From Minisyncoccota bacterium (GTDB lineage Bacteria; Patescibacteriota; Minisyncoccia; Phycocordibacterales; UBA1006): DNA of 62,075 bases. The notes beneath the pieces were generated by a model. The model ran no database searches. It was not told where the DNA came from and saw only the letters and a program-made list of their open reading frames with translations. The DNA lies in assembly GCA_021734445.1 (NCBI GenBank), contig JAIPIY010000003.1:1-62075 (forward strand), in the 5' to 3' direction. The translations under genes were made by a program, and so were the position numbers. Shown piece after piece: positions 21,513-52,059 of the stretch (position 1 is the first letter of the stretch; the number at the start of each line of letters is the position of its first letter).

Positions 21513-21869
21513 CTATAATACAACCACAACAAGCGAAACCAAGGTACCCAGTATAGCACCAACAAGAATTTGTAATGGTGTATGTACCTTTATTTGTAAT
21601 CTCCAATAAATAATAGAAATAACTCCAGCAAAAATAACAGCAACGAGCATTATTTTTTCAATAAGTTCAATGTTTAAATGTAAAATAAAATAAGTATAAA
21701 AAATTGCAACAGCAAAAGAAAAGCTAGTATGCCCGCTGGGGAATGCATAATCACGAAGTGTCACGAGGGCATTTTGGGGTCGTGGAACCCTTGTTATATT
21801 CTTGAGAATCAACGTAATACCAAGAGTGATTACGATTATCAAAGATATATCCACGATTAGGCTTTGCAT
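21513..21869 (-). CDS. PAP2-family phosphatase (short)
   Basis: PRP...PSGHTSFSF acid-phosphatase motifs in a small polytopic protein. The upstream GTG extension contains a TATAAT box, so ATG at 21869 is preferred. Confidence 0.6.
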   Translation of the reverse strand: MQSLIVDISLIIVITLGITLILKNITRVPRPQNALVTLRDYAFPSGHTSFSFAVAIFYTYFILHLNIELIEKIMLVAVIFAGVISIIYWRLQIKVHTPLQILVGAILGTLVSLVVVVL

Positions 21870-21975
21870 ATATTTTTCTTGATTATCTTTCTTCTTAACA
21901 TAATTATAGTATATCACAAAGACGGGTGGTAATTTTTTATTGATTAATAGGATAAATTATTGTATTAAACTACAA

Positions 21976-22006
21976 CAAAAACAAGTCACAGAGTGACTTG
22001 TTTTTG
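21976..22006. terminator. bidirectional terminator hairpin bounding the island
   Basis: AAAAACAAGTCAC-AGAG-TGACTTGTTTTT, with an A-run and a T-run on either side. Confidence 0.7.
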
Positions 22007-22043
22007 TTTGCTATATTCTAGCCCTTTCGAGCGCTTGAACTAG

Positions 22044-22149
22044 CACTCGTGACGGTGAGGGTTCTCGAGATAGAACCAACCAGAGTCCTTACCCCATAAT
22101 GTTATTTTAATGTTTTTAGTATAACATTTTGACCCTTCTCGTGCGACTA
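22044..22149 (-). repeat. island repeat element A (pseudo-tRNA-3'-end module)
   Basis: Aligns with 23802-23919. Shared plus-strand blocks are GGTGAG, AGATAGAACC, TTACCC, TTTTTAGTAT and an identical 19-mer GACCCTTCTCGTGCGACTA (22131-22149 = 23901-23919). On the minus strand it ends ...GGTTCTATCT..CCCTCACCG, resembling the tRNA-Glu 3' end. Confidence 0.8.
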
Positions 22150-22165
22150 AATAATTTGATATTCC

Positions 22166-23296
22166 TCACCAATCCATATTCGCCATGTCGTCGTACATTC
22201 TTATCATGTATTCAATATATTCTTTAATTTCTTGACTAGACATTCGACTAATCATATCGTTACGGGTATTTTCATTTTTTGAAAAAGAAACATTTAAGCC
22301 TGCATTTATATAGGCAAAAATACTTTGTGTTGAAGTATGTTTGCTAATTAATTTCAAAAACGATTTCATTACACTGAAATTATCCTCCTGATTGCTCCAT
22401 CGAACAGAAACTGACTTATCATTCAGTGTACATGAAATTTTATGTCTAGCTCCCTCTAAATAAAAACTAAATACAGTATATGTGCCTCCGTGGGCTGAAG
22501 GGTTTCTTTTATACTTAGCTAAGCCAATCAATTTATCATAAATATCTTTAAATTCAGGTTCATTAATATCAAAGACCTTCTTAAATTTCTCACTCCATTT
22601 TAAATTTGAAAATCTTTCTACATTTTCTCTTTCTGGAATATCTCTAAACGCTAAAAATAGCACACAAAGATGTTCTAACATACTAAAAAATGAAAAATAT
22701 GAAGCTGTCTCGTAATATTTAATTTCGTAGATTGCTTTGTTTGAAGTTACTGTTGTAACGTTACCAAATTTTTTTATCTTTGGGTGTGATTTTTCTGCTA
22801 TCTTCCTTTTGTGCAAGGTTATTTTTTGAAAATAGTCATAAGGCTTAAATAATTCGTTAAATTTATTTTCAACTATTATCTCTCCCTTTAAAAGGGCTTC
22901 TTTGGCGTATTCTTCAACGAGTGGTAAAGTAGCTAATAAGACTTTGTATAATAAACCTTCCAAAGATTCAGCCACCCTCATTGCTTCATCTTCTGTATTA
23001 GCACTTACATATATTCTAAAACCGAATTTTTGATGAGCAATTGAGCAACTATATTTGTTTTTATAAGCAAAATATATTGACCAATTTATTTTCTCCATTG
23101 GTTGATCGGATATTCTAAATGATAAAATATCAGAAAAAATGTATCTTGCTAGTCGCCATATGTCATAGTCTCCAGAAAGACGATGTTTGTAACTAATTTG
23201 TGTTCCTGAGTTTTTAATAGGAGATTGGGTAAAATCTTTTAGCTGTTTTTGTATTTTGTTAGTAAGTTTTGTTTTGTTGTCTGGTAGCATATACAC
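22166..23296 (-). CDS. hypothetical protein with Rx4H HEPN-type motif (candidate RNase effector)
   Basis: 376 aa, K/N/I/F-rich. KYKRNPSAHGG (R264-H269, nt 22490-22507) fits the HEPN Rx4-6H signature (RNxxxH type). I could recognise no other family. Confidence 0.6.
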   Translation of the reverse strand: MYMLPDNKTKLTNKIQKQLKDFTQSPIKNSGTQISYKHRLSGDYDIWRLARYIFSDILSFRISDQPMEKINWSIYFAYKNKYSCSIAHQKFGFRIYVSANTEDEAMRVAESLEGLLYKVLLATLPLVEEYAKEALLKGEIIVENKFNELFKPYDYFQKITLHKRKIAEKSHPKIKKFGNVTTVTSNKAIYEIKYYETASYFSFFSMLEHLCVLFLAFRDIPERENVERFSNLKWSEKFKKVFDINEPEFKDIYDKLIGLAKYKRNPSAHGGTYTVFSFYLEGARHKISCTLNDKSVSVRWSNQEDNFSVMKSFLKLISKHTSTQSIFAYINAGLNVSFSKNENTRNDMISRMSSQEIKEYIEYMIRMYDDMANMDW

Positions 23297-23326
23297 AAAC
23301 CAAAAGATACTAATCTTTTGGTGAGA

Positions 23327-23767
23327 TTATTTTTTATTAATAAAATTAATATATAATTCTTCTTTAAGTTGGAAACCGGAAGGACCAGTACCAAAACTAT
23401 TATCAATAAATTCTATATAACCACGTGATACAAGTGAATCTAATCCATTACCTGAAATTAGTCCTTTTTTATAATCCGACATTGTAATGAAAGTAGTTCC
23501 TTGTTTAATATATTCTTCAATAATAGATTTTTCAGTTTCTGAAAAAATATTTTCTGTATTTGATTTAATAGATTTATTTTTTAAATAATTAATCAGTAAT
23601 CTACTTAAAACCTTGGTTGCTGAGAAAAAACAAATAAAAATTAATACAATAGTTACAGTGTCTTTTATGTTTAAATAAAAAAGAAATGTAATTAGTGATG
23701 CAACAAAAAGTGACAAATTTGTGGAGTCATCTTTTTCGGAATAAATTTTTTTAAAAAGTTCGTTCAT
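23327..23767 (-). CDS. small membrane protein: two N-terminal TM helices plus a C-terminal globular domain
   Basis: 146 aa. Hydrophobic segments LSLFVASLITFLFYL and TIVLIFICFFSATKVL. TATAAT-containing upstream region; no recognisable family. Confidence 0.55.
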   Translation of the reverse strand: MNELFKKIYSEKDDSTNLSLFVASLITFLFYLNIKDTVTIVLIFICFFSATKVLSRLLINYLKNKSIKSNTENIFSETEKSIIEEYIKQGTTFITMSDYKKGLISGNGLDSLVSRGYIEFIDNSFGTGPSGFQLKEELYINFINKK

Positions 23768-23801
23768 AATTTTTATTATACTACTTTAAACCGTTTATAT
23801 G

Positions 23802-23919
23802 CTTCTCGTGCAAGCACGAATTGGTGAGCCTTTAACAGATAGAACCCCTGTGGTTCATTACCCTGTAAGGCGGTTTGTTATTTTTTTAGTATGTCATCTC
23901 GACCCTTCTCGTGCGACTA
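23802..23919 (-). repeat. island repeat element B (pseudo-tRNA-3'-end module flanked by direct repeats)
   Basis: Bounded by CTTCTCGTGC at 23802-23811 and 23905-23914. The minus strand reads TAGTCGCACGAGAAGGGTC...GGGGTTCTATCTGTTAAAGGCTCACCA-ATTCGTGCTT-GCACGAGAAG. This parallels the real tRNA-Glu end GGGGTCACCA-TCAACAGCGC-GCACGAGAAG. Confidence 0.8.
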
Positions 23920-25053
23920 TTATTTTAAAATTAAACTTAAAATAAAACCAAGTGTTGCCCCAACCATAGTAGTCACAAAAAGATAAGTGTTGTTTGTACG
24001 GTTTGATTGTTTTTTGTCCATAAAATCGACCAAATCAGAAATACTAGATAAATATTGTTGTTCTTCTTGGTCATCATCTTCAATTTTGAAGAATTCCTTT
24101 AAATGAAAAACTCCTTTTTCTCTTTCCGTATCTTTCATTCTTTGATTGATATTTTGAGAAAAAGATATGTTGTAATATTTGAGTTCAACTACTTTTAAAA
24201 ATAGCTTTTCTATTCTTGAGGATGTTCGCCTGAATATATTTGCTTGCCACCATTCTATACCAAACCCACTTTTAGCTTTGACAGCTAATTTGTCTATTAT
24301 TTGACGCATATTTAACTTATAATTTCTAAAAAGCACTTGTAGATAATAAAGTGAAAATTCTTCAGATAACTCATTAATTACAAATTTCTTAAAGTCTTCT
24401 TCATTTTTAAAATTAGTTTGTGAGCCATTGATTTTAACTAAATCATAGCTACTTGTGGGTACAATTTTTGTGAAGATTTTTAAGTTTTCTTTATTTAGAT
24501 ATTCAGTATTAATGTTTGAGTTATCTAAAAGTTCTATTTCAAAGTCGCCATGAAAGGGACTTGGTCCAAGAACCTCCAATTCAAACCTAATTTCTTTGTT
24601 ATTTTCAATTTCATTTTTAATAAATTCTCTTACACACACTACTGCCCAGCTACTTTCTTCAGTATCTAGCAATTTCCTTGGTTCAATTATTGTAAAGGTG
24701 AAATAATAGTTGAAATAAATTTCAACTTTGAAGAATTCGTTACTCTTATAACAAAAACCCCAGCCTAATGCTTTTTCTTGCATCTTCTTAGGGATAAATA
24801 AATCAAATGATATCTTGCCCTCACAGAATGAGGGGAAAAACCCGGTGGCATCCTCAAAATTAAAATTTTCTTCCTTTATTTCTTCATCACTTGGAATAAA
24901 GCCACTTCTAAAACTATTCTCCTGAATATCAATTTTTAAATTGCTAATATTTGTTATCTTGTCTAAATCTTCCTTTAAATACTTAATGTATTCTTCAGGG
25001 GACATTTTTTGGGTTGCTTTAAAGTGAAAACACCCCAGTCCAATTTTTTTCAT
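23920..25053 (-). CDS. hypothetical protein with single C-terminal TM anchor
   Basis: 377 aa, K/N/E/F-rich, C-terminal YLFVTTMVGATLGFILSLILK. Its own TATAAT box lies upstream. No recognisable family. Confidence 0.6.
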   Translation of the reverse strand: MKKIGLGCFHFKATQKMSPEEYIKYLKEDLDKITNISNLKIDIQENSFRSGFIPSDEEIKEENFNFEDATGFFPSFCEGKISFDLFIPKKMQEKALGWGFCYKSNEFFKVEIYFNYYFTFTIIEPRKLLDTEESSWAVVCVREFIKNEIENNKEIRFELEVLGPSPFHGDFEIELLDNSNINTEYLNKENLKIFTKIVPTSSYDLVKINGSQTNFKNEEDFKKFVINELSEEFSLYYLQVLFRNYKLNMRQIIDKLAVKAKSGFGIEWWQANIFRRTSSRIEKLFLKVVELKYYNISFSQNINQRMKDTEREKGVFHLKEFFKIEDDDQEEQQYLSSISDLVDFMDKKQSNRTNNTYLFVTTMVGATLGFILSLILK

Positions 25054-25113
25054 AAATATATTATATAACTAATTCTTGTATATAAAAACAGTATACTTCT
25101 CGTGCGCGCTGTT

Positions 25114-25188
25114 GATGGTGACCCCACGGAGAATCGAACTCCGATTTCCAGGATGAAAACCTGGCGTCCTAACCGTTAGACGATGGGG
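25114..25188 (-). tRNA. tRNA-Glu (anticodon UUC), CCA encoded
   Basis: GGCCCCATCGTCTAACGGTTAGGACGCCAGGTTTTCATCCTGGAAATCGGAGTTCGATTCTCCGTGGGGTCACCA; anticodon loop TTTTCAT. Confidence 0.9.
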
Positions 25189-25240
25189 CCTATAAAACGC
25201 TATGAAGTATAGCATCTTTTACAAAAATGACAATATGTAT

Positions 25241-25287: not shown

Positions 25288-25764
25288 TCAAGCACGAAGT
25301 CTTATATCTAACATGTGTTCAAATATCGTCTTTAATCCGTATATTGGCATACCAGGACGAATTTTATCCTTGAGGACATCTATACTCAGATAACCTTTCT
25401 CCTCTCTCTCTTTTTCAAGGAAAGTATCCAAGATAAGCTGATAGTCCAAATAAAAGTCAACATTCTTCTTTGTATGATTCAAAGGTTCAGGTAGATTCTG
25501 TAGCACCCAATCTATTTGAGGTGTTTTAAACTTATCCTTGTGTTTTACCAATAATGTACGCCAAATCATGGGACGTTCTACATAAAGGAACAATAACGCA
25601 AGCCTGTGTTCGACTAATACTTTTTGTACGTAAACAAATGCTTTCCAAGCATCAGTTTCGCTATCTAGTTCGTGAAAAAAATTAGATTTTGGCTTCTCTT
25701 GAACGGGTTTTACTACTTGTTCATTCAAAAAAAGAAGCCACTTAAAGATTCTTGGAATTTCCAT
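25288..25764 (-). CDS. hypothetical protein
   Basis: ORF with no recognisable domain. A TTGACA-17-TATCTT promoter overlaps the track's TTG start at 25791, so ATG at 25764 (MEIPRIF...) is preferred. Confidence 0.45.
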   Translation of the reverse strand: MEIPRIFKWLLFLNEQVVKPVQEKPKSNFFHELDSETDAWKAFVYVQKVLVEHRLALLFLYVERPMIWRTLLVKHKDKFKTPQIDWVLQNLPEPLNHTKKNVDFYLDYQLILDTFLEKEREEKGYLSIDVLKDKIRPGMPIYGLKTIFEHMLDIRLRA

Positions 25765-25864
25765 CGTGTGTGTGAATTGGTTCCATACCAAGATACACTA
25801 AAATAATCTCTATGTCAAAATATGCACAAATCCCCTGTTTTGTTATAATAACAATTAATATCAT

Positions 25865-25937
25865 GCACGGTTAGCTCAGTTGGTAGAGCACTCCCTTGAC
25901 GTGGGAGGGGTCGCAGATTCGAGTTCTGCATCGTGCA
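25865..25937 (+). tRNA. tRNA-Val (anticodon GAC)
   Basis: GCACGGTTAGCTCAGTTGGTAGAGCACTCCCTTGACGTGGGAGGGGTCGCAGATTCGAGTTCTGCATCGTGCA; anticodon loop TTGACGT. Confidence 0.9.
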
Positions 25938-25988
25938 CAAATAATATTTAGGTTGCCTTGAAACCCGTTGTCATGTAGCATACTGGGT

Positions 25989-27173: not shown

Positions 27174-27229
27174 ATTAAGATATACTTTTAAACCTTTGAA
27201 AAATAAAGTTTATTTGGTATTATATGTGC

Positions 27230-29941
27230 ATGTCATTACCTGATAAATTTTTAAAACCCTTTGATGCTCAATCTATCGAAGACGGACTGTATGCAAAATG
27301 GCTTGCCAGTGGTCTTTTTAATCCTGACGTGTGCATAGAAAAAGGTTATACAAAACCTGATGCAGAATCTTTTAGCATTGTCTTACCTCCCCCAAACGTT
27401 ACAGGAACACTGCACACTGGTCATGCATTCATGCTGGCTATCGAAGATATTATGGTTCGCTACAACAGAATGCAGGGTAAAAAAACACTTTGGATTCCTG
27501 GAACCGACCATGCGGCTATTTCTACAGAATCAGTTATCGTAAAACAATTATCAAAAGAAGGAACAACAAAATTTAAAATCGGGCGAGAAGAATTTTTGAA
27601 ACGAGTAAACACATTTGCACAAGAATCTCATGATACCATTGTAGGACAAACAAAAAAAATGGGTGCATCATTGGATTGGTCCAGAGAAGCATTTACATTA
27701 GATGAACAACGACATCGTGCTGTGGTGACTGCGTTTAAAACCATGTATGACGATGGGTTGATTTATCGTGGTGATCGTATTGTAAACTGGGATCCAAAAG
27801 GACAAACAACCGTTTCAGATGACGAAGTAGATCGCGAAGAAGAGACTTCTAAATTTTACTATTTCAAATATGGGCCTTTCGTAATCGGAACTGCCCGACC
27901 AGAAACAAAATTTGGTGACAAATATGTTGTAATGCATCCTGATGATGCTCGTTTTTCTGAATATGCTCATGGACAAAAAATTGAATTAGAATGGATAAAT
28001 GGGCCAATGACTGCAACTGTTATCAAAGATACCGCTATTGATATGGAATTTGGTACTGGTGTGATGACTATTACTCCATGGCACAGTGCTATCGACTTTG
28101 AAATTGCAGAAAAATATAATCTAGACAAAGAGCAAATTATCGATATGTATGGGAAATTATTACCTATTGCTGGAGAATTTGCAGGAATGAAAATAGAAGA
28201 AGCTCGTGCAAAGATTGTTGAAAAATTGGATGCAAAAGGTCTTTTGGTAAAAATAGAAGATAACTACAAACACCAAAAAGCAATATCTCAGAGAACAAAA
28301 GCAACTATTGAACCTCAGATCATGAAGCAATGGTGGATTGATGTTAACAAACCTATTGCAAAAAGAGACAATCTTTCGTTAAAAGAATTGATGTTACGTG
28401 CGGTACGCGAAGATGGTGTAGCTATTATCCCCGACCGGTTTGAAAAGATTTATTTCAATTGGATCGAAAATCTCCGCGACTGGAATATCAGCCGACAAAT
28501 TTGGTACGGACACCAAATCCCTGTTTGGTATGATAAAGAAAATAATGTGCATTTGCCTCGTGAGCAAAAATTTATTTTTACTCGACATGGGGAAAGTCAG
28601 GCAAACCTGGATAAAGTATACGCGGGACAAGCAGACAGTCCGTTAACCACATTAGGTAAGGAGCAAGCACTTGATACCGCAAAGAAACTTCATGGAAAAA
28701 ATATTTCAAAGATTATATCATCTGATTTAAGTCGTGCATATGATACAGCCCAAATTATTGCAAAAGAATTAGGGATAGATAATATCGAAACATGGAAAGA
28801 ACTTCGTAATATGGATTTAGGTAATACTACTGGCACTCCGCTACCAGACAACAGCACTTCTTCAAAATTTACAAAAAAAACAATGATCGATATTGGCATA
28901 GAGTATAGTGATGGAGAGACGCTACAAGACCTAGAAAAACGGGCGCACGAAGTAATCAAAAAACTACAGAAATCATCTTCCGAAGGAGTCATTCTAATTG
29001 TTGGACATGGTCAATTTACTAGAATATTGCTCAGTGTTTTAAATGGTGATAAGGGTAATCAAATTCTTGATAATCAAAGAAAAATAACAATAGACAATTT
29101 GCAAATTTATGAAAAAACTTTATTTTTAAATCCAACAGGAGAAAATTTAACTCAGGATTCTGATACTTTGGATACCTGGTTTTCTTCTGGGTTATGGACA
29201 TTTTCAACACTTGGCTGGCCAGAAAATACAAATGATTTAAAAATATATCATCCAACATCAATATTAGAAACGGGTCACGATATTATTTTCTTTTGGGTTG
29301 CACGTATGATTTTGATGAGTACCTATTTATTAGGTGAAATTCCATTCAAAACAGTATACATGCACGGAATGGTTTTGGATAAAAATGGAAAGAAAATGAG
29401 TAAATCAAATCCAGAAACAGCTATTGATCCCCTGCTAACGATCGAAAAATACGGGGCTGACGCATTGCGTATGGCAATGATCGTTGGTGTTGGCCCTGGT
29501 CAAGACGTAACATTGTCAGAAGACAAAATCAAAGCCTACAGTAAATTTGCAAACAAAATTTGGAATGCAACCCGATTTGTATTAGAGCAAACCAATGCAG
29601 ACGATTTGCAAACAAAACCTGTTTTAGATCAAGAACACGCAGAATATATTAATCAATGGAATACACTGTCTACAGAAATCACAAAAGAAATGGATGAATT
29701 CAGATATTATCTGGTGTCTGAAAAATTATATCATTTCTTCTGGCACACGTTTGCAGATATTGTTATCGAAAAATGTAAATCAGATATGAACGATTCTGCA
29801 CGGTACACATTGCGATATCTGTTACACAGACAATTGATTACACTGCATCCATTCATGCCATTTATTACCGAAGAAATTTGGAGCTCTCTTTATCCAGACG
29901 GTGATCTTTTAATGATAACACCATGGAAATCAGCGGAGTAA
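27230..29941 (+). CDS. valS: valine--tRNA ligase with an inserted histidine-phosphatase domain
   Basis: HIGH-type PPPNVTGTLHTGHAF, the KMSKS box GKKMSKSNPE, and WNISRQIWYGHQIPVWY. Between that and DTLDTWFSSGLW lies an insert of about 190 aa starting FIFTRHGESQANL (nt about 28570-29140). Confidence 0.9.
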   Translation: MSLPDKFLKPFDAQSIEDGLYAKWLASGLFNPDVCIEKGYTKPDAESFSIVLPPPNVTGTLHTGHAFMLAIEDIMVRYNRMQGKKTLWIPGTDHAAISTESVIVKQLSKEGTTKFKIGREEFLKRVNTFAQESHDTIVGQTKKMGASLDWSREAFTLDEQRHRAVVTAFKTMYDDGLIYRGDRIVNWDPKGQTTVSDDEVDREEETSKFYYFKYGPFVIGTARPETKFGDKYVVMHPDDARFSEYAHGQKIELEWINGPMTATVIKDTAIDMEFGTGVMTITPWHSAIDFEIAEKYNLDKEQIIDMYGKLLPIAGEFAGMKIEEARAKIVEKLDAKGLLVKIEDNYKHQKAISQRTKATIEPQIMKQWWIDVNKPIAKRDNLSLKELMLRAVREDGVAIIPDRFEKIYFNWIENLRDWNISRQIWYGHQIPVWYDKENNVHLPREQKFIFTRHGESQANLDKVYAGQADSPLTTLGKEQALDTAKKLHGKNISKIISSDLSRAYDTAQIIAKELGIDNIETWKELRNMDLGNTTGTPLPDNSTSSKFTKKTMIDIGIEYSDGETLQDLEKRAHEVIKKLQKSSSEGVILIVGHGQFTRILLSVLNGDKGNQILDNQRKITIDNLQIYEKTLFLNPTGENLTQDSDTLDTWFSSGLWTFSTLGWPENTNDLKIYHPTSILETGHDIIFFWVARMILMSTYLLGEIPFKTVYMHGMVLDKNGKKMSKSNPETAIDPLLTIEKYGADALRMAMIVGVGPGQDVTLSEDKIKAYSKFANKIWNATRFVLEQTNADDLQTKPVLDQEHAEYINQWNTLSTEITKEMDEFRYYLVSEKLYHFFWHTFADIVIEKCKSDMNDSARYTLRYLLHRQLITLHPFMPFITEEIWSSLYPDGDLLMITPWKSAE

Positions 29942-51696: not shown

Positions 51697-51789
51697 GTAT
51701 TTATGCAAAGTTCGAATGTCTCAAATGGGTCAATTTTTGACCTAATAAAAACACTTACAAACTAAAGCATCTCGTGCTACCTGTTAAAG

Positions 51790-51987: not shown

Positions 51988-51988
51988 G

Positions 51989-52059
51989 CGGGCCCACGAG
52001 GATTCGAACCTCGGTCAACGGTTTTGGAGACCGCTATTCTACCACTGAACTATAGGCCC
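51989..52059 (-). tRNA. tRNA-Trp (anticodon CCA)
   Basis: GGGCCTATAGTTCAGTGGTAGAATAGCGGTCTCCAAAACCGTTGACCGAGGTTCGAATCCTCGTGGGCCCG; anticodon loop CTCCAAA; CCA not encoded. Confidence 0.9.

Follow-up and report, generated by a model that had tools for sequence, protein, structure and literature searches.

Two candidate integrase-less mini-cassettes stacked behind tRNA-Glu in a Minisyncoccota bacterium, one carrying a predicted HEPN RNase

Known systems closest to the locus

HEPN RNases can be recognized by the motif Rx4-6H with a polar N, D or H after the arginine (PMC3710099). Among these proteins are the abortive-infection proteins AbiD/AbiF (Abi_2), AbiV, AbiU2 and AbiJ and other HEPN conflict families, which bear a stand-alone R-[N/D/H]-x3-H, are carried on mobile elements, are patchily distributed across phyla and have no fixed partner gene (PMC3710099). 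RnlA and LsoA, the RNase LS toxins of the anti-phage toxin-antitoxin systems RnlAB and LsoAB, are likewise found on mobile elements and combine N-terminal beta/alpha, TBP-like domains with a helical domain that contains R-x4-H. In RnlA, E258 and R318 are 60 residues apart, and some HEPN toxins require a cognate antitoxin, as RnlA does RnlB (PMC8266594). An integron-associated HEPN protein is also known (PDB 3jrt; PMC3710099).

The arrays described here share several features with integron cassettes, namely tandem, co-oriented units of one to three genes that are each closed by a conserved site of ~100 nt, a highly diverse cargo including toxins and nucleases, and the occurrence of one cassette at different array positions across genomes. 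However, they begin at a tRNA gene and not at intI/attI, an IntI-type recombinase was not found, the cassettes seem to carry promoter-like sequences along, and the closing element, unlike attC, is no imperfect palindrome and has no consensus hairpin. tRNA-targeting islands such as tycheposons, and integrase-less derivatives of the CIME-like or satellite type, insert at tRNA 3' ends as seen here; these elements further resemble the cassettes in the partial-tRNA direct repeats around each unit, in a serial integration that shifts older units outward and in their streamlined host genome (10.1101/2020.12.28.424599). In contrast to these elements, the cassettes measure only 1.2-1.8 kb, lack integrase, excisionase and replication genes, and use as repeat a conserved 105-nt element common to many unrelated cargos, which does not simply duplicate the tRNA end. 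With a probability of roughly 60% we read the locus as two independent integrase-less cassettes between tRNA-Glu and its original terminator, with a predicted HEPN RNase as cargo.

An AT-rich segment behind tRNA-Glu

The segment was found in a window of 62,075 nt, the whole stretch of DNA that was analysed. Its limits are a hairpin terminator and tRNA-Glu, as the first-pass annotation had proposed; a PAP2 gene (21513-21917; Pfam E = 8e-16) is indeed its neighbour, and ARAGORN places tRNA-Val at 25865-25938 (+). The ORF list holds the three co-directional minus-strand genes at the positions claimed for them, and we name their products A, B and C (Table 1). GC content is 0.293 at 22040-25105 compared to 0.367 across the remaining window, which makes this the lowest-GC 3-kb stretch of the 62 kb (z = -5.3 against non-overlapping windows), and the three genes have the bottom three GC values among the 46 genes of the window; an AT bias first judged by eye is borne out by this comparison. 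A 10.6-kb match at 100% identity in an independent assembly (L144) shows that the A-B-C arrangement is no assembly artefact. None of the three proteins matches a Pfam, NCBIfam, PHROG or PADLOC family, in line with the earlier failure to recognize any, nor do they belong to housekeeping families that always occupy this position. By inspection, which is not an exhaustive profile search, none of the 57 non-overlapping ORFs of at least 110 aa in the window encodes an integrase, as had been noted before, or another recombinase linked to the cassettes. The AT-rich stretch is foreign DNA, a horizontally acquired accessory insertion, and the earlier assignment as an accessory island at tRNA-Glu stands.

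Table 1. Positions of the features in and around the AT-rich segment
Feature	Position	Strand	Basis
tRNA-Glu(UUC), CCA encoded	25116..25190	-	ARAGORN; Rfam tRNA 62.6 bits
tRNA 3' flank = left junction of cassette 1, TCAACAGCGC-GCACGAGAAG-TATACT	25085..25115	-	sequence
Gene A, 377 aa, cargo of cassette 1	23920..25053	-	ORF and hydropathy
Element copy 1, end of cassette 1	23816..23921	-	direct repeat; alignment with 45 copies
Left junction of cassette 2, AATTCGTGCTT-GCACGAGAAG-CATATAAAC	23795..23815	-	sequence
Gene B, 146 aa, first in cassette 2	23327..23767	-	ORF and hydropathy
Perfect hairpin, 10 bp, loop 4 nt	23299..23322	.	in 30-nt B-C gap
Gene C, 376 aa	22166..23296	-	ORF; 374 aa if ATG at 23290 is the start
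Element copy 2, end of cassette 2	22047..22151	-	sequence comparison
Degenerate flank motif GTGCTAGTTCAAGCGCTCGAAAGGGCT	22009..22046	-	by-eye comparison with L088, L109, L130
Bidirectional intrinsic terminator	21974..22008	.	perfect inverted repeat, 16-nt arms, 100% complementary

Hydropathy agrees with the topologies first proposed. A has a single hydrophobic segment (residues 356-377) and is a predicted tail-anchored orphan; B has an N-terminal hydrophobic block (16-60), long enough for two helices, followed by a soluble tail of ~75 aa; C has no hydrophobic segment and is soluble.

tRNA-Glu(UUC) is the attachment point for the cassette stack. A promoter-like TTGTCA-16-TGnTATACT (25233-25206) lies immediately upstream of it, and the core motif GCACGAGAAG is found in its 3' flank at 25096-25105, within a promoter-like spacer. 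The same core lies 3' of tRNA-Glu in other genomes (L014 and L007/L008; with one mismatch in L009), and its second copy in the segment again has a promoter-like setting, upstream of B. At the far end, GTGCTAGTTCAAGCGCTCGAAAGGGCT is by eye similar to GCTAGTTCGAGCACTCGAGAAGG, the sequence 3' of elements in other arrays, and probably represents what originally flanked the tRNA downstream. The terminator that follows, bordered by A and T runs, would be the original tRNA-Glu terminator, moved 3.1 kb by two insertions; in L014 and L009 a terminator hairpin is likewise located 3' of the tRNA flank or of the last element.

A conserved element at the end of each cassette

Element copy 1 has the layout TAGTCGCACGAGAAGGGTC ... 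TGnCATACT ... CCTTACAGGGTAATG ... GGTTCTATCT ... GGCTCACCA and shares a direct repeat with 22105-22149 at 84% identity. In total ~47 distinct copies were recovered from low-GC metagenomic contigs, and 45 copies drawn from other contigs were aligned. Across the ~47 copies, two anchor motifs keep a constant spacing of 54-55 nt and the mean column identity is 73%. The last ~28 nt mimic the T-arm, acceptor stem and CCA of tRNA-Glu. On these low-GC, CPR-like contigs the element ends co-oriented cassettes of one to three genes behind tRNA genes, mostly tRNA-Glu (9 of the 11 cases with a visible upstream tRNA), with up to three elements per contig in the orientation of that tRNA. The cargo comprises Mrr_cat, PIN_12, DUF4238, NOV_C, a methyltransferase, QueD (Pfam PTPS), a Vut_1 vitamin-uptake transporter, NUDIX, HD, His_Phos_1, DnaJ and numerous orphans. 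A consensus RNA structure is absent on both strands and no Rfam family matches, which is in keeping with a DNA-level site.

Each cassette would start just past a (pseudo-)tRNA 3' end, ...TCACC(A), continue with a short flank that holds GCACGAGAAG in its promoter-like setting, and end with the ~105-nt element; cassette 1 would carry A and cassette 2 B and C, together a stack of 3.1 kb. Element and flank may form an attP-like site that recombines with the attB-like tRNA 3' end, with the recombinase supplied in trans. Alternatively, the element might serve as a homology arm for recombination following DNA uptake. Incoming cassettes would push older ones outward from the tRNA. Neither an empty site nor a circular junction was observed, which counts against cassette mobility, and no recombinase recurs at element-bearing loci.

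The latter finding would also suit a possible but doubtful alternative, namely that the element is a lineage-specific terminator, insulator or promoter and that the locus is hypervariable through ordinary homologous recombination, without site-specific mobility of cassettes. The element could be regulatory and not recombinational, because promoter-like hexamers lie inside it: extended -10-like TGnTATACT and TTGACA-N17-TATAAT-like sequences occur in element and flank. CPR bacteria are thought capable of DNA uptake, and the conserved tRNA and element sequences are possible homology arms. However, the window has just two full copies, both behind tRNA-Glu, and the 3' part of the element copies a tRNA 3' end. 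L014 has a B-C block that is 99.8% identical to ours over 1778 nt, while its FtsZ, ClpB and IF-2 are only 69-72% and its tRNA-Glu 77% identical. The block extends from 23831, at CACCA, to 22054, at CCCTCACC, and the exchange ends exactly at TCACC on both sides. In L009 a homologue of A lies between direct repeats of the tRNA 3' end, and such partial-tRNA repeats are classically what site-specific integration leaves behind (10.1101/2020.12.28.424599).

Protein C and its family

The C family comprises at least 735 representative clusters (E <= 1e-3), mostly of 370-400 aa, without a Pfam, NCBIfam or PADLOC model. Its distribution is patchy (Saccharibacteria, Microgenomates, Bacteroidota, Gammaproteobacteria, Eubacteriaceae), and no relatives were found on viral contigs. 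Stand-alone C-like proteins occur in Bacteroidota, Gammaproteobacteria, Firmicutes and CPR, often close to large serine recombinases; Fic, DUF4917, LexA-like and P4 cII-like genes are further neighbours. In 107 relatives (20-60% identity, mean column identity 24%), K69, K90, E208, H269 and G270 never vary, and R264 and N265 are each kept in at least 90%. The KRNPSAHG emphasized by the first-pass annotation is present at residues 263-270 (R264-N-P-S-A-H269-G270 encoded at 22487-22507), and its R..H pair is conserved in the family. Given the invariant H269 and G270 and the almost invariant R264 and N265, C probably represents a new family of HEPN RNases, with a layout that is loosely RnlA-like.

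The motif follows the HEPN rule in its spacing, in the polar N after the arginine and in its place where a long helix ends and passes into a loop, and a conserved acidic residue lies upstream, as the rule has it. We propose that C has beta/alpha (TBP-like) domains at its N-terminus and a helical domain that bears the invariant E208 and R264-N-x3-H269-G; C would be a self-contained, metal-independent RNase of the HEPN superfamily. The order of domains is that of RnlA/LsoA, the length is similar (376 vs 357 aa), and 56 residues separate E208 from R264, compared to 60 in RnlA, with a conserved glutamate upstream in both. Unlike these toxins, C has no RnlB/LsoB-like antitoxin downstream and continues after the motif for ~107 residues with beta-hairpins, which is also unlike canonical HEPN domains, and with an invariant NMDW at the C-terminus. 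Similarity in sequence or profile is absent (hhalign probability 0.1% against RnlA; Pfam RnlA models unmatched). The HEPN Abi proteins share the stand-alone motif, mobile carriage and patchy occurrence with C; their Pfam and PADLOC models do not match it, and their domain layout is different.

It seems somewhat unlikely that C is no nuclease at all and that the R-N-x3-H-G, K69, K90 and E208 serve ligand or nucleic-acid binding or another catalysis, the HEPN likeness being coincidental. Such a reading would accommodate the two invariant lysines in the N-terminal beta domain, which suggest a second functional site, and the lack of significant profile or fold matches to HEPN families: Pfam HEPN families match none of the 107 members, Foldseek returned no significant HEPN hit (best E = 0.12 against PDB, 0.044 against BFVD), and Ex3[K/R], a motif that many HEPN families share, is missing. 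The non-significant fold matches were to RnlA chains, the RnlA/LsoA N-terminal domain and TBP-like proteins. In the AF2 model (pLDDT 82.6) the motif falls in a low-confidence loop (<50). Against a non-nuclease speak the agreement with the signature described above, weak matches of a few family members specifically to HEPN-bearing Csx1, Csm6 and CARF-HEPN models, repeated in two independent libraries, and the mobile, toxin-rich surroundings, which suit HEPN toxins. As a HEPN RNase, C would most likely be a growth-arresting toxin or an abortive-infection effector, comparable to single-gene HEPN Abi proteins and RnlA. It is the motif and the mobile-element context that suggest such a role in defence; contrary points are that no PADLOC system matches, that viral contigs yielded no relative of C and that sister cassettes carry no specifically defensive cargo.

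Separate occurrence of A, B and C

Only three homologues of A were found (47-55% identity; L007-L009), each alone by a tRNA-Glu without B or C; its AF2 model (pLDDT 63.8) has no significant fold matches. B and C directly follow tRNA-Glu without A in L010-L012 (85-86% nt identity) and L014, and B occurs in L013 as a single-gene cassette after tRNA-Glu, with a degenerate element behind it. C relatives in other phyla are accompanied by neither A nor B. Cassettes are found separately and in differing orders, and the AT-rich segment is not the one three-gene module that had been suggested but probably two separately mobile mini-cassettes.

We regard it as unlikely that B and C work together as a two-gene system of the toxin-antitoxin or Abi type, with B as membrane-anchored regulator, sensor or antitoxin that restrains C. 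The genes are adjacent in the window, L014 and L010-L012 (30-nt gap) and move jointly as one cassette, RnlA and RnlB offer a precedent (PMC8266594), and the only family hint for B is a sub-cutoff similarity to the membrane exclusion protein SieB (E = 0.015). Nevertheless, the pairing is limited to one narrow clade, B also stands alone, and in five other lineages C relatives (38-53% identity) lack a B-like or any other conserved neighbour. A strong hairpin, perhaps an attenuator, a processing site or a junction relic, separates the two genes. B may modulate C in the present lineage, whereas C would generally act independently of B, and the putative tail-anchored A and the small membrane protein B would be unrelated cargo.

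That A and B serve nuclease C as membrane sensor or anchor in a single defence or abortive-infection system is highly improbable: the three low-GC genes are co-directional, close together and in the same order in the second assembly of this organism, but A and B are separated by a complete recombination-type element that has a flank of its own, the transferred block consists of B and C only, and, because A, B+C, B and C occur separately, the apparent grouping of a HEPN nuclease with membrane proteins reflects cassette cargo that has come to lie side by side by chance.

The tRNA-Glu locus and its junctions

CPR bacteria have tiny genomes, and the routes by which they exchange genes are poorly understood. 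Exchangeable cassettes, each ending in a conserved element that mimics a tRNA, would give these organisms a concrete and testable mechanism of accessory-gene turnover, and the element would also serve as a practical marker for cargo genes in metagenomes. The most far-reaching reading of the locus is tentative, with a probability of about 0.3. It envisages an undescribed integron-like system in CPR/Patescibacteria-like bacteria, in which a trans-acting recombinase would capture short integrase-less cassettes, each closed by a conserved 105-nt element resembling the 3' end of tRNA-Glu, and pile them up behind tRNA genes. The system would spread single-gene conflict modules among distant hosts, including a new and widespread family of HEPN RNases with an RnlA-like layout. 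This cassette architecture is perhaps more important than the candidate RNase itself.

The three minus-strand open reading frames described by the first-pass annotation are present at its coordinates and encode proteins A (377 aa), B (146 aa) and C (376 aa). The AT-rich composition judged there by eye is borne out by calculation, with a GC content of 0.293 compared to 0.367 in the rest of the window; the stretch is thus foreign in composition and the lowest-GC 3-kb segment of the 62 kb (z = -5.3), and of the 46 ORFs that reach 140 aa, A, B and C have the three lowest GC contents. The bidirectional terminator is a perfect 16-bp inverted repeat, and Pfam identifies the product of the downstream neighbour as PAP2 (E = 8e-16). 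The organism has also been assembled independently (L144), and the two sequences are 100% identical over 10.6 kb, hence the arrangement is not an assembly chimera. L144 breaks off exactly within the tRNA-Glu gene, as would be expected of a heterogeneous population or of repeated sequence at the junction. To find an empty site, the exact PAP2 protein was looked up, which led to no genome but this one (L144, 100% identical). In agreement with the annotation, no integrase or other recombinase was seen when the ORFs of the window were inspected; the cassettes carry either A alone or B and C, and none of these products is recombinase-like in Pfam, NCBIfam, PHROGs or PADLOC. A 167-aa ORF without family match in the same four collections lies between tRNA-Glu and tRNA-Val, a position that is occupied at another locus (L081) by an unrelated 142-aa ORF.

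Features of the tRNA-Glu locus and related sites in the window
Feature	Position	Strand	Remark
PAP2-side terminator	21974-22008		inverted repeat
Low-GC stretch	22040-25105
Element, second copy	22047-22151	-	after C
Pseudo-3'-end of tRNA-Glu	about 22054-22080
Gene C	22166-23296	-	cassette 2
Inverted repeat	23299-23322		B-C gap
Gene B	23327-23767	-	cassette 2
Element, first copy	23816-23921	-	after A
Pseudo-3'-end of tRNA-Glu	about 23820-23845
Block shared with L014	23831-22054		1778 nt
Gene A	23920-25053	-	cassette 1
Stretch identical in L144	14513-25147
tRNA-Glu(UUC)	25116-25190	-	array head
167-aa ORF	25288-25791	-
tRNA-Val	25865-25938
Valyl-tRNA synthetase	27224-29941	+
Core-motif copy	~51768-51777	-	one mismatch
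tRNA-Trp	51988-52059

Read along the minus strand, the tRNA-Glu end ...GGGGTCACCA is followed by TCAACAGCGC-GCACGAGAAG-TATACT. Past the stop codon of A stands TAGTCGCACGAGAAGGGTC and, about 55 nt further on, GGTTCTATCTGTTAAAGGCTCACCA; this is the first copy of the element. After it, upstream of B, comes AATTCGTGCTT-GCACGAGAAG-CATATAAAC. The second copy follows C (84% identity over 45 nt, repeat D2), ends in ...GGTTCTATCTCGAGAACCCTCACC and has on its 3' side a degenerate flank and then the terminator. Over its last ~28 nt the element imitates the 3' end of tRNA-Glu, agreeing with the T-arm, acceptor stem and CCA at ~19 of 28 positions by our own count, and two pseudo-3'-ends of tRNA-Glu can be placed in the window (Table).

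Comparison with a related locus on another contig (L014) indicates that exactly the B+C unit moved horizontally in recent time, because this unit is 99.8% identical between the two while FtsZ, ClpB and IF-2 share only 69-72% and tRNA-Glu 77%. The left edge of the shared block is the CACCA of the (pseudo-)tRNA and its right edge is the CCCTCACC of the element. Homologues of A show related borders. One lies between two plain direct copies of ~25-30 nt from the tRNA 3' end (L009), and around another the entire downstream flank of the tRNA is duplicated (L007). Together, these borders are the footprints expected of serial insertion at a tRNA 3' end, in which newer units would push older ones, together with the original terminator, away from the tRNA. 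The same serial-insertion pattern has been described for tRNA-linked islands and tycheposons (10.1101/2020.12.28.424599). Elsewhere in the window the core motif recurs with one mismatch (TAGCACGAGATGC, following TTTAACAGG) some 210 nt past tRNA-Trp on its downstream side; this copy resembles the flank behind tRNA-Glu in L007 and L008, and may be a further attachment-type or promoter site.

The 105-nt element across metagenomes

A metagenome scan with the pattern CGAGAAGGKTC-N45-65-GTTCTAKC gave at least 120 matches. About half of the 120 matches listed were high-GC chance matches and were discarded; the remainder lie on low-GC contigs (27-44% GC), keep a fixed spacing of 54-55 nt and are conserved well beyond the pattern. 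Alignment A3 contains 47 distinct element copies among the matches listed, 45 of them outside the window (L007-L139), with a mean column identity of 73%. Conservation reaches 20 nt further upstream (ACTTTTGTCACTTTTTATAG) at ~12 loci. The elements close co-oriented groups of one to three ORFs downstream of a tRNA, with at most three elements observed per contig, and the visible upstream tRNA is tRNA-Glu in nine of eleven cases, the others being tRNA-Arg and tRNA-Gly. Sister cargo includes a Mrr-type endonuclease, PIN_12, DUF4238, NOV_C, a SAM methyltransferase, QueD (Pfam PTPS), a Vut_1 vitamin-uptake transporter, NUDIX, HD and His_Phos_1 proteins, a DnaJ-domain protein and many orphans. No recombinase recurs beside the arrays at these element-bearing loci.

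The element belongs to no Rfam family, RNAalifold finds no consensus structure on either strand, and single-sequence z-scores range from -1.4 to +0.8. Two short hairpins can be drawn (83% of cells paired), their covariation being not above shuffles, and on these grounds the reading as a structured RNA was set aside. A phage origin was likewise rejected, as viral contigs yielded no C relative and the element is absent from IMG/VR contigs, where the pattern gave two matches, both high-GC chance. The element contains an extended -10-like box (TGnTATACT), and the flank past CACCA often resembles TTGACA-N17-TATAAT with GCACGAGAAG in the spacer. Given the promoter-like boxes and the lack of any Rfam, structural, covariation or viral match, we read the element as a DNA-level site, which is most likely recombinational (attP-like) and possibly regulatory, or both. 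A recombinase supplied in trans would capture the cassettes site-specifically at the tRNA 3' end, and their genes would be expressed from the junction promoters. Promoter-like boxes would also suit an element that is regulatory, with cassettes exchanged by homologous recombination; the exchange boundaries are located at the tRNA-like TCACC, and we regard this alternative as rather unlikely.

Among known genetic systems, such a recombinational site and its cassettes come closest to integron cassette arrays on the one hand and to tRNA-targeting islands or tycheposons, with their integrase-less derivatives, on the other. Like integrons, the arrays consist of tandem co-oriented cassettes with varied cargo that are exchangeable between genomes. 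However, the integron attC is an imperfect palindrome with a bottom-strand hairpin, whereas the element has no consensus structure in either strand, and in place of intI, attI and Pc the array head is tRNA-Glu, with no recombinase seen among the inspected window ORFs or recurring at element-bearing loci. With tRNA-targeting islands the locus shares insertion at a tRNA 3' end and direct repeats of the tRNA 3' part, but the units encode no integrase inside.

A side observation concerns the valyl-tRNA synthetase of the window, which carries a histidine-phosphatase-like insert at about residues 440-640 (FTRHGESQANL ... GHG). Free-standing proteins of ~200 aa that resemble this insert in BLASTP are cassette cargo beside the element in L025, L055 and L114, the last of which matches Pfam His_Phos_1, and occur also in the element-bearing contigs L063 and L130.

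Protein C as a candidate HEPN family

The motif KRNPSAHG, in which the first-pass annotation had seen a HEPN signature, occupies residues 263-270 of C, a protein without hydrophobic segment (Kyte-Doolittle). The 18 close family members all carry R264, N265, H269 and G270. Searching 1.84 billion representatives with a profile recovered 735 C-family proteins at E <= 1e-3, 502 of them at E <= 1e-10; most of the 735 are full length with 370-400 aa. Even across 107 members chosen for conservation analysis (20-60% identity to the query, 24% mean column identity), K69, K90, E208, H269 and G270 are invariant, N265 and a C-terminal N-M-D are kept at 90% or more, and R264 is kept at the same level, hence the R..H pair is indeed a conserved feature. 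HEPN proteins have an Rx4-6H motif ending helix 3, with a polar N, D or H after the arginine, an acidic residue in an upstream helix and often Ex3[K/R] (PMC3710099). The sequence R264-N265-P-S-A-H269 follows the motif rule, with the polar asparagine directly after R264. The AF2 model (pLDDT 82.6, pTM 0.70) consists of two units of a beta-sheet plus a long helix, followed by a helical region. R264 comes right after the long helix 247-263 and the motif enters a loop, residues 265-272 having pLDDT < 50; beta-hairpins (275-298) precede the next helix. E208 lies in helix 187-215, outside any Ex3[K/R] motif.

Profile and structure searches (Pfam, PADLOC, NCBIfam, Foldseek against PDB and BFVD) gave no significant match of C to a recognised HEPN family. 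Pfam has no relevant family match for C and 107 relatives, and a few relatives weakly match Csx1/Csm6/CARF-HEPN models (five member-family matches in PADLOC, best E = 5.8e-5; three in NCBIfam, best E = 0.004). Foldseek of the model returned nothing at E <= 0.001 in PDB or BFVD; the recurring top weak matches are four RnlA chains (E = 0.35-1.4) and TBP-like proteins, and an RnlA/LsoA N-terminal-domain protein is another, ranging with TBP-like proteins over E = 0.18-0.78. The sole hit of the family profile among PDB sequences, to the phycobilisome linker CpcL, is spurious, the match running over EKxAW. On balance we lean towards C being a new HEPN family of loosely RnlA-like layout and a predicted RNase, for which a toxin or abortive-infection role may be envisaged. 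That C is not a nuclease at all would agree with the missing match to recognised families; we consider this rather unlikely.

RnlA/LsoA and single-gene HEPN Abi proteins are the closest protein analogues of such an RNase. RnlA is built as TBP1-TBP2-HEPN, with E258 located 60 residues before R318-x4-H323 (PMC8266594), and in C E208 similarly stands 56 residues ahead of R264-x4-H269. Membership in the RnlA family was rejected, since hhalign of the family profile against E. coli RnlA gave a probability of 0.1% (E = 0.52) and there is no Pfam match; RnlA is kept solely as an architectural analogy. Unlike in RnlA/LsoA systems, no rnlB/lsoB lies directly downstream of C, where the element and terminator are found instead. 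With a HEPN/RnlA profile match, an attC palindrome, intI and an internal integrase all absent, we count the finding as a member of none of these classes, yet not as categorically new.

Genes near C relatives include serine-recombinase islands, Fic, DUF4917, LexA-like, P4 cII-like and HTH-M78 genes, contexts that are typical of conflict-system cargo and no proof of defence. In a Saccharibacteria MAG (L015, 98-3637) the C homologue adjoins a large serine recombinase and shares 23 nt with an overlapping DUF4917 gene, suggesting that the two form an operon. A Gammaproteobacteria MAG (L019, 6977-13891) has both a Fic gene and a large serine recombinase within a few kb of its C homologue. Should C prove to be an active HEPN RNase, its family would comprise at least 735 clusters (50% identity) in several phyla and on mobile elements, for which Pfam, NCBIfam and PADLOC have no model, and C would add one more single-gene candidate for a toxin or abortive-infection protein. 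Homologues from Proteobacteria and Bacteroidota allow testing in E. coli.

Separate occurrence of A, B and C

None of the three proteins matches a recognised family or a named defence system, in accordance with the first-pass annotation: nothing in Pfam, NCBIfam, PHROGs or PADLOC rose above sub-threshold noise, and in PADLOC-DB v2 none of the three had a match at E <= 1. Matches to TFIIE, Sigma54_DBD, SieB, NrdI and a hemolysin PHROG were sub-threshold and due to chance; for B, superinfection exclusion by SieB was rejected at 15.3 bits against a cutoff of 26 (PF14163, E = 0.015). A and B are lineage-restricted orphans, and their profiles found nothing among PDB sequences. A has the single C-terminal anchor described before, one hydrophobic segment at residues 356-377 (Kyte-Doolittle). 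Its model (pLDDT 63.8) has a beta-rich N-terminal part of moderate confidence and a low-confidence helical C-terminal part that ends in the anchor; the best fold match, YwmB (E = 8e-3, probability 0.47), is not interpretable. In B, a hydrophobic block (residues 16-60, Kyte-Doolittle) is followed by a highly conserved soluble tail.

Only three homologues of A were found (47-55% identity); on their CPR-like contigs each adjoins tRNA-Glu, and neither B nor C is present (L007, L008, L009). B and C lie directly 3' of tRNA-Glu, with A absent, in L010-L012 (85-86% nucleotide identity) and L014, an arrangement that would suit a functional two-gene pair. B also stands alone, 69% identical and placed after tRNA-Glu, followed by a degenerate element copy (L013). 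C relatives with 38-53% identity, found with alignment A1 as query, are located in MAGs of Saccharibacteria, Microgenomates, Bacteroidota, two Gammaproteobacteria and Eubacteriaceae, where they have neither A-like nor B-like neighbours and share no neighbour family. Over seven independent contexts no neighbour of C is conserved; large serine recombinases alone recur, at a distance of a few kb (L005, L015, L019, L020). Since the wider C family occurs without B, C needs no B; B may modulate C in this clade, and we regard the pair as unlikely. The single three-gene system proposed by the first-pass annotation is very improbable, as A, B+C, B and C are each found without the others elsewhere. Hence, the three-protein defence module dissolves, and a large unannotated HEPN-like family and a tRNA-mimicking cassette element of CPR-like bacteria remain. 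For annotation this means that neighbours within such an array need not function jointly.

Two smaller observations concern cassette 2. The 30-nt gap between B and C is taken up by a perfect inverted repeat of 10 bp, whose loop measures 4 nt. In L014 (3504-4634) a single CGA>TGA change turns codon 299 of the C gene into a stop; a costly gene may have been inactivated here, or the change may be a sequencing error.
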